This document shows, piece by piece, positions 4,745-8,006 of a DNA stretch of 64,000 bases (positions are counted from its first letter, which is position 1; each line of letters opens with the position of its first letter). Below the pieces are notes generated by a model. That model had not been told where the DNA came from. It worked only from the letters and a program-made list of their open reading frames with translations, and did no database searches. The stretch is from Thermoanaerobaculia bacterium (GTDB lineage Bacteria; Acidobacteriota; Thermoanaerobaculia; Multivoradales; JAIOJS01). The position numbers and the translations under genes are program-made. Location: contig DASYQD010000018.1 of the NCBI GenBank assembly GCA_036005845.1, positions 13,333-77,332 of the forward strand. Direction: 5' to 3'.

Positions 4745-5962
4745 CTAGACGTTCTCGAAAGCCAGGGACTCGACGAGCCGCGGATCGTTGACCGGCACCA
4801 GCGCCCGCCGCCGCAGCGTCCACGCCAGCGCGCCGGCGAAGAGCAGGCCGAGCGCGAGGAAGGTCAGCACGTCGAGCAGGCGCAGCCGCGGCCCGTCATG
4901 GTACAGGCTCGGCATGATCAGCCAGTAGATGTCCAGCCACTCCATGAGCAGCAGCCAGAGCGCCGAGGCCCAGAGCCCCCAGCGCACGCGCTTGACGTCG
5001 CGCATCAGCAGGAAGAAGAAGGGAATCACGAAGTGGCCGACGACCAGGGCGCGCGTCAGCGGCAGCCAACCCGGGTTGAGCCGCGCGGCGAACCAGTTGG
5101 TCTCCTCGGGCATGTTGGCGTACCACTGCAGCATGAACTGCGCGAAGGCGATGTAGATCCAGAAGACGACGAAGGCGAACATCAGCTTGCCGAGGTCGTG
5201 GAAGTGCTCCATCGTCACCACGCCGCCGAGGGCGCCGCGGCGCTGCAGGAGCAGCGCCAGCACGATGAGCAGCGCGAACGACGACATCGCCAGGCCGCCG
5301 AACAGGTAGCCGCCGAACACCGTCGAGTACCAGCGCGGCGACAGCGACATCACCCAGTCGAAGGAGGCGAGGGTGAGCGTGATGGCGAAGACCAGCATCG
5401 ACGGCGCCGACACCGACTGCATCCGCCGCGTGATCTGCAGCGCGCCCATGCGGTCCTGCCGCTCCGACTGCCGCCAGAACCACCAGCCGAGCAGCGACCA
5501 GAGGACGAGGTAGATCGCGGCGCGGACCACGAACGGCCCCGGCGCCAGCCACCCCGACTTGTGCGCGATGACCGGGTCGTGCGCCGCCGCCTCGCTCGCC
5601 CACGGATAGATGGCGCGGACGCCGAAGGCGATAGGCACGAAGAGGATCGCCGTCACCGGCAGGGTGGCGCCGACCGCCTCGGCCAGGCGCCGCACGACGA
5701 CGCTCCAGCCGGCGCGCGTCAGGTGCTGCAGCAGCACGAAGAAGAGCCCGCCGAGCGACAGCATGGCGAAGTAGACCCAGTTGAAGAGGTAGGAGTGGAA
5801 GAGCTGCGCTGGATCGCCTTTGCCGACGATGAACGCGACGGCGAGCAGCACGACGCCCAGCGCGCCGGCGATCAGCGGCAGCCCGCCGGCGCCCTCGCGC
5901 TTCAGAGTCACCTGCGCGCGGTCGAGCGACGGCGCGGCGTGCGCGTCGTCGCCGTGCGGCAT
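4745..5962 (-). CDS. ActF-like NrfD/PsrC-family polytopic membrane protein (paralogue of ACIII subunit ActF)
   Basis: The ORF track gives 4745..6427. The N-terminal 155 aa are low-complexity and overlap the ActD-like gene. The in-frame ATG at 5962 gives 405 aa, co-linear and similar to ActF at 15003..16223 (406 aa). Confidence 0.75.
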   Translation of the reverse strand: MPHGDDAHAAPSLDRAQVTLKREGAGGLPLIAGALGVVLLAVAFIVGKGDPAQLFHSYLFNWVYFAMLSLGGLFFVLLQHLTRAGWSVVVRRLAEAVGATLPVTAILFVPIAFGVRAIYPWASEAAAHDPVIAHKSGWLAPGPFVVRAAIYLVLWSLLGWWFWRQSERQDRMGALQITRRMQSVSAPSMLVFAITLTLASFDWVMSLSPRWYSTVFGGYLFGGLAMSSFALLIVLALLLQRRGALGGVVTMEHFHDLGKLMFAFVVFWIYIAFAQFMLQWYANMPEETNWFAARLNPGWLPLTRALVVGHFVIPFFFLLMRDVKRVRWGLWASALWLLLMEWLDIYWLIMPSLYHDGPRLRLLDVLTFLALGLLFAGALAWTLRRRALVPVNDPRLVESLAFENV

Positions 5963-5982
5963 CCCGGTGTGCGTCCCGGTGT

Positions 5983-6540
5983 TCACGCCGGCTCCTCCAC
6001 CAGCTCGACCGCCAGCGCGCCGGCGCGCTCGAGGAGCTGCACCGTGGCGCTGCGATCGAAATGCGGGTCGGCGGCTTCGATGGAGATGAAGAAGCGGTCG
6101 TCCGTCACCCGCTCGAAGCGCTTCGATTCGAAGAGCGGATGGTGGTGGCGCGGCAGCTTCGAGAAACCGAGGAAGCCGAGCACCGCGCCGGTGGCGCCGC
6201 CCAGCACGCCGCACTCGAACATGATCGGCACGAAGGCGGGCCAGCTGAAGAACGGCTTGCCGGAGATGACGAGCGGATAGGCGCGCGTCGCCACCCACCA
6301 CTGCAGGCCCATGCCCGCCGCGGCGCCGGCGAGGCCGAAGACGAGCACCGCCAGCGGCACCATCGACCGCTTGAGGCCCATCGCCTTCTCGAGGCCGTGC
6401 ACGGGGAACGGGCTGTGGGTGTCCCACTGCTCGAAGCCGGCATCGCGCACCCGCTCTGCGGCCTTGTAGAGCGCCGCCGGCGAGTCAAACTCGGCCAACG
6501 CTCCCCAGACCGTGCCGGTCGTTGCGGCCGCGGCGCTCAC
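5983..6540 (-). CDS. ActD-like membrane protein (DUF3341 family), paralogue of ACIII subunit ActD
   Basis: Only the C-terminal ~185 aa of track ORF 5983..7857 are protein-like. This part aligns with ActD at 16854..17402 (EFDSPAAL.../...SWPAFVP...). A GTG at 6540 overlaps the stop of the upstream ActC-like gene (GTGA). Confidence 0.65.
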
Positions 6541-8006
6541 GCCGGCGCTCCTTCTTCCTGCCGGTACGGCACGCTGGGCGGCGTCACGTGCGGCTGCGCG
6601 TGCGCCTGCGGCAGCACGCCCTTGACCTCCGACATCGCCACCATCGGCAGGAAGCGCACGAAGAGGGTGAAGAGGGTGAAGAAGAGGCCGAAGCTGCCGA
6701 TCAGCGTCGAGATGTCCCAGATCGTCGGATGGAAGTAGTCCCAGTTGGCGGGCATGAAGTCGCGGTGCAGCGAGGTGACGATGATGACGAAGCGCTCGAA
6801 CCACATGCCGATGTTGATGAAGATCGAAGCGACGAAGAGCACCGGGATGTTCACCCGCAGCTTCTTGAACCAGAACAGCTGCGGCACGATGACGTTGCAG
6901 GTCACCATCGTCCAGTAGGCCCAGGCGTAGGGGCCCATGGCGCGGTTCCTGAACGTGAAGAACTCGTAGAGGTTGCCGCTGTACCAGGCGACGAAGAACT
7001 CGGTGGAGTAGGCATAGCCGACGATCGAGCCGGTGGCGAGGATGAGCTGCGCCATGCGGTCGAAGTGGAGCAGGTTGATGATGTGCTCCATCTTGAAGGC
7101 GACGCGGCAGATCACCATCAGCGTGATCACCATCGCCAATCCCGAGAAGATGGCGCCGGCGACGAAGTAGGGCGGAAAGATGGTGGTGTGCCAGCCGGGG
7201 AGCTGCGCGGTGGCGAAGTCGAACGACACCACCGAGTGCACCGAGAGCACCAGCGGCGTGGCGAGGCCGGCGAGCAGCAGGTAGGCGCGCTCGTAGTGCT
7301 GCCACTGGCGGTGGCTGCCGCGCCAGCCGAGGGCGAAGAGGCCGAAGAGCCGCTGCGCCAGCGTGCCCTCCCTGCTGCGGTCGCGCATGGTGGCGAGGTC
7401 GGGGATCAACCCGACGTACCAGAAGATCAGGGACACCGTGCCGTAGATGGACACCGCGAAGACGTCCCACATCAGCGGGCTTCTGAACTGCGGCCACATC
7501 CCCATCTGGTTGGGCACCGGCAGCATGTAGTAGTCGAGCCACGGCCGCCCGGTGTGGATGGTGGGGAAGAGCAGCGCGCAGGCGACGGCGAAGAGCGTCA
7601 TCGCCTCGGCGGCGCGGTTGATCGAGGTGCGCCAGCGCTGGCGGACCAGGAAGAGCACCGCTGAGATCAGCGTGCCGGCGTGGCCGATGCCGACCCAGAA
7701 GACGAAGTTGGTGATGTCCCAGGCCCAGGCGACGGGGATCATGTTGCCCCAGACGCCGATCCCCTCCCAGAACAGCCAGGCGACGGCGACGCCGAGCAAG
7801 GCCAGCATCGACAGCGAGATGCCGAGGACGATCCACCAGCCGAGCGGCGGCTTCCACTCGATCGGGCGGGCTACCGCCTCGGTGATGGAATGGAAATCCG
7901 GGGCGCCGAGGATGAGCGGGGGGCGATGGTCGATGGGATCGACATCCCGGTCGACGTCGTACGCAGCGACGTGCGCATCGACGTCATGAAGCACGGCCTC
8001 GGCCAT
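6537..8006 (-). CDS. ActC-like NrfD/PsrC-family polytopic membrane protein (paralogue of ACIII subunit ActC)
   Basis: 489 aa. Strong similarity over the whole length to ActC at 17399..18859 (e.g. [31 protein letters not shown]). Confidence 0.8.

Follow-up and report, generated by a model that had tools for sequence, protein, structure and literature searches.

ActC, ActD and ActF genes joined to an aa3-type oxidase in an acidobacterial operon that probably works with haem and iron-sulphur subunits from another operon

Gene content of the second operon

The window, a 64,000-nucleotide stretch of contig DASYQD010000018.1 from a Thermoanaerobaculia bacterium (Acidobacteriota), carries on its minus strand (8006-610) an operon of nine genes, in which those for three membrane subunits of alternative complex III (ACIII), namely ActC, ActD and ActF, are followed directly by the genes of an aa3-type haem-copper oxidase with a CuA site. 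Pfam matches, PDB matches and gene calls agree on this composition, which had been proposed in the original prediction. No CXXCH motif and no Fer4 domain is present in any of the nine proteins, and the module thus has no haem c or iron-sulphur (FeS) wire of its own, again as predicted. To judge from the sequence, the operon probably works only with haem and FeS subunits that are encoded in another operon. This reading is carried by its gene content, its conservation, the shuffling of modules among relatives and an intact quinol site. A complete type-1 ACIII-caa3 super-operon lies on the same strand of the window (22646-9786); the proteins of the two operons are distinguished by the suffixes 1 and 2, and the nine genes ActC2-ActD2-ActF2-CoxA2-CoxC2-CoxIV2-sm1-sm2-CoxB2 are referred to as the CDF-cox2 module. 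For comparison, 80 genome loci were fetched with a profile of the ActF2 clade and annotated by tblastn with the window proteins. Since only the best 80 were kept out of at least 588 matches, locus counts are not to be read as frequencies. Fetched homologous loci are designated by L-numbers.

The interval 4745-8006 consists of three minus-strand genes, as established by third-position GC and translation. ActC2 (8006-6537, 489 amino acids) is the NrfD-like quinol-binding subunit of ACIII (Pfam NrfD, E 2.5e-25), ActD2 (6540-5983, 185 amino acids) is its two-helix subunit (Pfam ActD PF11821, E 1.6e-65) and ActF2 (5986-4745, with an alternative ATG at 5962 in the gene call of the Joint Genome Institute, JGI) is the second NrfD-like membrane subunit. 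ActF2 has no Pfam match; it is 38% identical to ActF1 (E 6e-81), and among 8000 candidates scored 2359 homologues were found at E <= 1e-10. ActD2 overlaps both ActC2 and ActF2 by a GTGA and starts with GTG, so that it is predicted to be translationally coupled to ActC2 through the overlap. Because the GC content of the window is about 69%, a mechanical list of its open reading frames is full of spurious frames. One of these, a frame of 560 amino acids (4745-6427), was considered as an ActD-ActF fusion and rejected as a read-through across two frames: the third-position GC phase shifts near 5950 and the end of ActD2 (5983) lies in a different frame.

The oxidase genes follow on the same strand in the order coxA-coxC-coxIV-two small membrane proteins-coxB, as the original prediction had stated. 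CoxA2 (4713-2887), an A1-type haem-copper oxidase subunit I with the motif HPEVY (Pfam COX1, E 3e-132), begins 31 nucleotides after ActF2 and is preceded by GAGGAG. It is followed by CoxC2, the oxidase subunit III (2877-2254; Pfam COX3, E 1.3e-19), by CoxIV2, a prokaryotic oxidase subunit IV (2234-1893; Pfam COX4_pro, E 6e-12, and TIGR02229), by the cluster-type-specific small membrane proteins sm1 (1882-1676, 68 amino acids, two helices) and sm2 (1664-1413, also a JGI gene call in L085), and by CoxB2, the oxidase subunit II (1416-610; TIGR02866 CoxB, E 2.4e-40). The genes from CoxA2 to CoxB2 are spaced by at most 25 nucleotides or overlap by 4 nucleotides, and the stop codon of sm2 overlaps the start of CoxB2.

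Most likely, the second cluster forms a transcription unit of its own. This is suggested by a HicB-like antitoxin gene on the opposite strand between both clusters (9519-9737, plus strand; a JGI call with PF15919 in L085), together with a promoter-like element, TTGACC-N17-TAAGAA (8090-8062, minus strand), 56 nucleotides 5' of the ActC2 start. The promoter-like block is kept in the window and in L001, L089 and L090 despite differing upstream genes. A consensus promoter and terminator scan of 400-10200 yielded nothing above the shuffled expectation and did not report this element. A sigma-54 promoter 5' of actC2, which was considered because of a conserved NtrC-type regulator downstream, was rejected, as the GG-N10-GC of the window is not kept in L001, L089 and L090.

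Misassembly, which the original prediction had named as a possible source of the arrangement, is unlikely, since the same gene order is found on an independent JGI contig (L085) and in other organisms (L001, L089, L090), in which ActF2 is 62-71% identical. A complete second ACIII reaching beyond the left edge of the window had been named as well. The 6.4 kb past this edge (L085) encode a sensor kinase, a hypothetical protein and a sigma-54-type two-component pair, and the 7 kb past the right edge (L088) encode GroES/EL and glycosyltransferases; no further actA, actB or actE was found in either stretch, nor by tblastn in the window outside the type-1 operon.

ActC2, ActD2 and ActF2 and the atypical oxidase

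The three ACIII subunits had been taken for a partial duplicate of the neighbouring complex, a view which the comparison did not uphold. ActC2 is 66% identical to ActC of Rhodothermus marinus (679 bits; 6f0k_C, E 3.2e-203) vs only 52-54% to ActC1. The latter scores 506 bits with R. marinus ActC and is closest to the proteins of Chloroflexus (616 bits) and Roseiflexus (595 bits). ActD2 and ActF2 likewise match their R. marinus counterparts (6f0k_D, E 7e-52, and 6f0k_F, E 2.9e-86). According to the tblastn annotation, the full ACIII clusters of other phyla, including Myxococcota, Planctomycetota, Ignavibacteria, Gemmatimonadota and others, possess ActC, ActD and ActF nearer to the second than to the first set of the window. 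On these similarities the two sets are judged to be old, distinct ACIII lineages, of which the second set is the more conventional one.

In the structure of the R. marinus complex, ActA, ActB and ActE (and ActH) form an electron-transfer module and ActC, ActD and ActF a membrane module; the residues of the quinol pocket and the proton half-channel of ActC are listed, Glu122 (ActD), Ser245 (ActC) and Tyr284 (ActF) are the coupling residues, and electrons are proposed to be taken up first by FeS1, a cluster of ActB at a distance of 10-12 A from the quinol pocket (PMC5928083). All nine pocket residues (W82, I86, F89, P136, H139, L166, D169, V250 and D253 in R. marinus numbering) are present in ActC2, and the equivalents of Glu122 and Tyr284 are kept in ActD2 and ActF2. 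The pocket and the listed proton-channel residues are invariant in all ActC2 copies of CDF-cox2 loci (34/34), and likewise in 39 copies from full ACIII clusters. The periplasmic loop of ActD that contacts ActB (YPLvISGKP.FsWPA) is conserved in CDF-cox2 loci at least as strongly as in full clusters. ActC2 is 70-82% identical across classes, and the reading frames of ActC2, ActD2 and ActF2 are intact with high third-position GC. By these measures no relaxation of constraint is apparent for the ACIII residues of the three proteins. The module conserves a quinol site but encodes no electron acceptor for it, which suggests that ActB is provided from another locus.

The best PDB matches of CoxA2 are the aa3 oxidases of Paracoccus and Rhodobacter. 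A motif table of CoxA2 and 30 orthologues shows that the six His ligands, the cross-link Tyr, the Glu of HPEVY and the Asp of the D-pathway are kept. CoxA2 is, however, not an ordinary subunit I of the aa3 type, because the K-pathway lysine is missing: in an ungapped alignment K362 of Rhodobacter sphaeroides corresponds to I371, S299 to A308 and T359 to S368, and the top PDB match for this segment is the K362M mutant. The same state was found in 30 of the 31 CoxA2 orthologues from the fetched loci. In a survey of 1.84 billion representatives, all those at least 53% identical to CoxA2 and spanning the site lack the lysine, and the nearest relatives bearing it are at most 49% identical. The idea that a subunit I of this kind is unique to the CoxA2 clade had to be rejected, as 45 of 127 more distant A-family-like representatives spanning the site have no Lys at the aligned position either; the state is thus unusual but not unique. 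No discussion of it was found in the literature searched.

CoxB2 was confirmed to possess CuA without CXXCH. Its CuA ligands (H...C-A-Q-L-C-G-I-G-H-S-K-M) align with those of Thermus caa3 (2yev_B) and Paracoccus aa3 (1ar1_B), and a Gln occupies the CuA bridging position where most subunits II have Glu. Without a CXXCH motif CoxB2 does not belong to the caa3 type, which is defined by a fused haem c domain. Nor is it of the quinol-oxidase type (bo3 or aa3-600): the CuA ligands are present, and the scores with the CyoA and QoxA models remain far short of the cut-offs.

Neither of the two small proteins belongs to a Pfam family. sm1, a hairpin of two helices, ends in WFLRKTR and has homologues at the same position in about 30 loci. 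sm2 has an N-terminal C-P/S-x-C-(F/Y/W)-G, followed by one transmembrane helix and a basic tail; its homologues with the conserved CxxC motif occur in 23 loci. In L074 another divergent oxidase cluster (1304-5230) is located upstream of the CDF-cox2 module. Its extra subunit I is 48% identical to CoxA2, also has no K-pathway Lys and is altered in the motifs around the haem ligands (LTDTYFVVGHFHMM).

In another reading, ActC2, ActD2 and ActF2 would have no quinol chemistry and would serve as a scaffold, an assembly aid or a proton-delivery accessory of the oxidase without the K-pathway lysine; as a further variant, they might be decaying remnants. A clade in which the equivalents of K362, S299 and T359 are absent would need some compensation in proton delivery. 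Against this, the invariance of the quinol pocket in all 34 copies argues that quinol chemistry was not lost, and the channels of ActC and ActF and the K-pathway open on different proteins with no known contact. Decay is excluded by the intact frames, the third-position GC and the identity of ActC2 across classes given above. Altogether, we regard an explanation of this sort as highly improbable.

The CDF-cox2 module and split ACIII modules in relatives

The profiling of ActCDF-only operons next to cox genes, which the original prediction had proposed as a check, revealed that CDF-cox2 is a conserved and widespread module across the Acidobacteriota and not a local oddity. The layout without adjoining or intervening ActA, ActB or ActE was found in 32 of the 80 genome loci and in the metagenome loci L001-L004, L089 and L090. 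The respective records are labelled as Thermoanaerobaculia, Vicinamibacteria/-ales, Holophagales, Polarisedimenticolaceae or plain Acidobacteriota, and two as delta-proteobacteria. In the neighbour-joining tree, which has no support values, the ActF copies of these loci form one clade. The module stands in tandem with a type-1 ACIII-caa3 cluster in the window, L001, L005, L031, L034, L068 and L090, and divergent from it in L027, L043 and L048.

Comparison of the loci further revealed two accessory genes. One of them, located between ActF2 and CoxA2 or immediately 5' of the latter in 35 loci (spanning L003-L081; e.g., L027 11313-12050), encodes a secreted amicyanin-like cupredoxin of about 240 amino acids. 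Its profile matches amicyanins over the cupredoxin domain (E 1e-5), the His/Cys/His/Met ligands of the type-1 copper are invariant, and the C-terminus is a CarboxypepD_reg-like domain. A cupredoxin in the module implies a periplasmic electron donor to CuA, comparable to the transfer from ACIII to auracyanin. The gene is missing in the window, L001/L002, L089 and L090, and no homologue was found anywhere in the 64 kb of the window, so that this lineage either lost the cupredoxin or never had it. The second accessory gene encodes an AhbD/NirJ2-like radical SAM/SPASM protein with a C-terminal PCP_red domain (Pfam matches) and is situated in the window at 9406-8162 (minus strand). It scores 329 bits with TIGR04055 and 312 bits with TIGR04545, both below the cut-offs. 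It accompanies CDF-cox2 in about 20 loci and occurs in none of the full ACIII loci; the protein may supply or modify haem for the CDF-cox2 oxidase. Relative to CDF-cox2, the gene is on the same strand where it lies upstream and on the opposite strand where it lies downstream.

In relatives, the membrane and the electron-transfer modules of ACIII are encoded apart and recombined. L019 and L028 contain the order ActA'-ActB'-ActE'-C2-D2-F2, in L028 followed by unrelated genes. In L052 (11451-20829) C2-D2-F2 precede ActA'-ActB'-ActE', after which a CydA-like protein and three c-type cytochromes are encoded. With ActB' of L052 as query, more than 120 soil proteins were retrieved at 80% identity or above. 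One match, P0333, is encoded on the same contig of 1,631,743 bp as L051. Its neighbourhood (L086, 9480-20918) consists of ActA'-ActB'-ActE', a CydA-like protein (PF01654), three cytochromes c and a Usp/PCP_red gene, without ActC, ActD or ActF. By contig coordinates, the L086 operon converges with the CDF-cupredoxin-cox2 operon of L051, with an overlap between the ends of the two fetched stretches, and it diverges from a full type-1 ACIII. The same ABE-only operon was found with unrelated genes upstream in L087 (9357-20889). In L031, L033 and L063 the Usp/PCP_red gene that closes the A'B'E' operon is also located at the far end, 3' of cox2. The PCP_red domain was thus seen both in the radical SAM protein and in the separate protein ending the A'B'E' operon. 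A further combination is represented by L075, in which a type-1 ActB is followed directly by ActE, ActG, Sco and the caa3 genes without ActC1, ActD1 or ActF1; after the caa3 genes come C2-D2-F2 and then unrelated genes, and the only ActCDF set is of type 2. In the neighbour-joining tree the ActB of L075 groups with that of the window. Type-2 membrane modules therefore occur with either kind of electron-transfer module. Neither an ActC/D/F-only operon fused to an oxidase nor an ABE-only operon is described in the literature searched, subscription journals having been outside its scope.

These arrangements also bear on the idea that the module is a self-sufficient quinol oxidase, in which electrons from quinol at ActC2 would pass straight to CuA or the cupredoxin without ActA, ActB and ActE, FeS or haem c, and in which the proton machinery of ActC and ActF would be coupled to an oxidase with a dismantled K-pathway. 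The tight coupling of the operon with its own conserved promoter-like element fits such a self-contained enzyme, as do the modules without nearby ACIII in L089, L003, L004 and many genome loci, the clade-wide absence of the K-pathway lysine combined with two cluster-specific small subunits, and the position of the cupredoxin exactly between actF and coxA. Nevertheless, members of the NrfD family are known to give electrons only to an FeS subunit (review PMC8076601), the ActB-contacting loop of ActD and all functional residues of ActC are conserved as in complete ACIII, and CoxB2 retains a normal CuA site of the cytochrome-c-oxidase type. The complementary ABE-only operons of L086 and L087 lack any quinol-binding subunit, and the forms of L052, L019, L028 and L075 are most simply explained as one complex split over two operons. 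A self-sufficient oxidase hence appears improbable.

Candidate partners, proposed electron route and known systems

The supply of ActA, ActB and ActE in trans to an ActC2D2F2-oxidase assembly is, on the comparative sequence evidence, the reading which we consider fairly probable. Two options had been offered in the original prediction, namely that ActC2, ActD2 and ActF2 swap into the ActA/B/E scaffold of the neighbouring operon or that they form a novel assembly with the oxidase. Their combination with a scaffold encoded elsewhere fits the comparative evidence best. The ABE-only operons of the relatives indicate that the partner need not be the neighbour.

In the proposed assembly ActC2 would provide the quinol site and a proton channel, ActD2 would act as coupling subunit and ActF2 would provide the second proton channel. 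This membrane module would be co-transcribed and probably co-assembled with the A1-type, CuA-only aa3-type oxidase and sm1/sm2. As it has no redox cofactor, quinol could be oxidised only with ActB and ActA (and possibly ActE) docked on ActC2 and ActD2. Electrons would pass from quinol at ActC2 to the [3Fe-4S] cluster of ActB, to the haems of ActA, with or without ActE, and to CuA of CoxB2, and from there via haem a and a3-CuB to O2. In most relatives the amicyanin-like cupredoxin may serve the last step to CuA, and in the lineage of the window the hand-over from ActA to CuA is probably direct within an ACIII-oxidase supercomplex. For such a direct transfer, from haem to CuA and without a soluble carrier, Flavobacterium johnsoniae provides a precedent: its aa3 oxidase receives electrons from ACIII alone, and this transfer does not require ActE (PMC8552683).

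Within the window, tblastn detected actA, actB and actE only as the type-1 copies at 16.2-22.6 kb, which belong to an operon distinct from CDF-cox2. The type-1 super-operon, as described in the original prediction and defined here by Pfam matches, CXXCH/CuA counts and the gene calls of L085, is encoded entirely on the minus strand. It comprises ActA with five CXXCH motifs (22646-21996), ActB with Fer4 domains (21999-18859), the type-1 subunits ActC1 (18859-17399) and ActD1 (17402-16854), ActE with one CXXCH (about 16840-16223), the type-1 ActF1 (16223-15003), an ActG-like protein (15010-14432) and Sco (14435-13563). The oxidase is represented by CoxB1 (13562-12525), which has CuA and one CXXCH at residue 229, by CoxA1 (12528-10894), which is of the A2 type (YSHPAVY) and keeps the K-pathway lysine, by the subunit III CoxC1 (10867-10154) and by the subunit IV CoxIV1 (10142-9786).

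That these adjacent type-1 ActA, ActB and ActE are the partner, with ActC2D2F2 as an alternative membrane arm by which ACIII would be connected to a second oxidase, is put forward tentatively, at somewhat less than even odds. A variant of the trans-supply reading differs from this solely in the identity of the partner: the operon would be one half of a dedicated type-2 ACIII, with unlinked ActA'B'E' elsewhere in the genome and an irrelevant type-1 neighbour. It is suggested by L051 and L086, which share one contig, by L052, in which both halves are fused, and by the Usp/PCP_red gene of the A'B'E' operon found 3' of cox2 in three loci. The abundance of soil proteins highly similar to type-2 ActB (more than 120 at >=80%) and the Vicinamibacteria-like genomes, which carry ActA'B'E' with a cytochrome bd-like oxidase, point in the same direction. 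For the window itself, though, no second actA, actB or actE was found between -6.4 kb and +71 kb (window coordinates), six further loci from its lineage had none within 10 kb, and the wiring of this lineage, which has no cupredoxin, differs from the Vicinamibacteria-like one. We consider a dedicated type-2 partner unlikely here. A search with ActB of the window retrieved none of its top 120 matches on the contigs of L001, L003 and L004, a result that says nothing on the partner, as these are long-read assemblies with fragmented genes.

Several points weigh against the trans-supply reading and against the type-1 neighbour as partner. The missing K-pathway lysine of CoxA2 fits nowhere in the model. 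Within 10 kb no ActA'B'E' was detected in the window, L001, L004, L005, L010, L089 and L090, and in the close relative L089 there is no ACIII gene at all within 8 kb 5' or 10 kb 3' of the module, so that adjacency to a type-1 ACIII is not obligatory. That one ActB fits both ActC2 and ActC1, at only 52-54% identity between the two, is an assumption which a single locus, L075, backs, and the trees are neighbour-joining trees without support values.

Some further genes of the window were recorded. The operon is followed on its 3' side by genes for a hypothetical protein of 190 amino acids, an NtrC-type sigma-54 activator and an opposite-strand histidine kinase (window 1-584, minus strand; L085 10920-16753), a neighbourhood that is conserved in the window, L001, L089 and L090; in the window, an extra DUF4118-PAS kinase is inserted after coxB2. 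The 190-amino-acid protein, conserved 3' of coxB2 in the relatives, was dismissed as a hidden redox partner, because neither a signal peptide nor a metal or haem motif is present. The second operon has no Sco gene of its own, and a second gene for a SCO1/SenC copper chaperone (29361-30011, plus strand; E 3e-25) lies distant from both oxidase clusters. Two islands of low GC content (24000-28000 and 46000-50000; 0.57-0.63 vs about 0.70) are possibly acquired elements; the first holds a helix-turn-helix/Peptidase_M78 (IrrE-like) gene at 26882-28024 and the second two RelA_SpoT-domain genes (47486-48973 and 49393-50226).

ACIII is usually viewed as a single enzyme of six or seven subunits encoded in one operon. 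In the present case, the genes of the two structural modules lie apart and are presumably regulated apart, and the modules are linked to different terminal oxidases. The membrane module goes with an A1-type aa3 oxidase, which may or may not be accompanied by a cupredoxin, and in relatives the haem/FeS module goes with a cytochrome bd-like oxidase. If this holds true, ACIII would be a reconfigurable hub of branched aerobic chains in the Acidobacteriota, a very abundant phylum in soil. The module may also serve as a natural experiment on the docking of ActB by ActC, ActD and ActF and on the specification of ACIII-oxidase supercomplexes, as well as on the function of an A-family oxidase in which the K-pathway lysine, indispensable in model enzymes, is missing.

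Among the known systems, the ACIII-caa3 supercomplex of R. marinus (PDB 6F0K; PMC5928083) resembles the second operon in its homologous ActC, ActD and ActF with the same quinol pocket, coupling and proton-channel residues, and in an oxidase gene cluster that adjoins the act genes. In contrast, the second operon has no ActA, ActB and ActE, its genes coxA-C-IV-x-x-B come directly after actF, its subunit II is without haem c, and CoxA2 is of the A1 instead of the A2 type and has no K-pathway lysine. In F. johnsoniae (PDB 6BTM; PMC8552683) ACIII likewise feeds an aa3-type oxidase, there in a 1:1 supercomplex, but a single operon holds all six act genes there, and an alternative membrane module is not known. 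The ACIII of Chloroflexus and Roseiflexus (PDB 6LOD, 8K9E; PMC7439408) has the blue copper protein auracyanin as acceptor, which is comparable to the cupredoxin of most CDF-cox2 relatives; the latter, however, is amicyanin-like with a CarboxypepD_reg-like domain and is absent from the window.

Variation of act clusters as such is known and comprises the loss of ActE, ActF or ActG, a split ActB and links to caa3 or bd-like oxidases (PMC12342949, citing Refojo et al. 2013; PMC8407424; bioRxiv 10.1101/2021.01.16.426971). For Nitrospirales, PMC12342949, citing Refojo et al. (2013), reports ActABCDE without ActF and ActG and a cytochrome bd-like oxidase downstream. These clusters are similar in that act sets vary by module and are linked to oxidases other than caa3, and they resemble L086 and L087; in them, though, ActC and ActD stay with ActA and ActB. 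Measured against these systems, the CDF-cox2 module is made up of known parts in a new and conserved partition, linked to a non-standard A-family oxidase.

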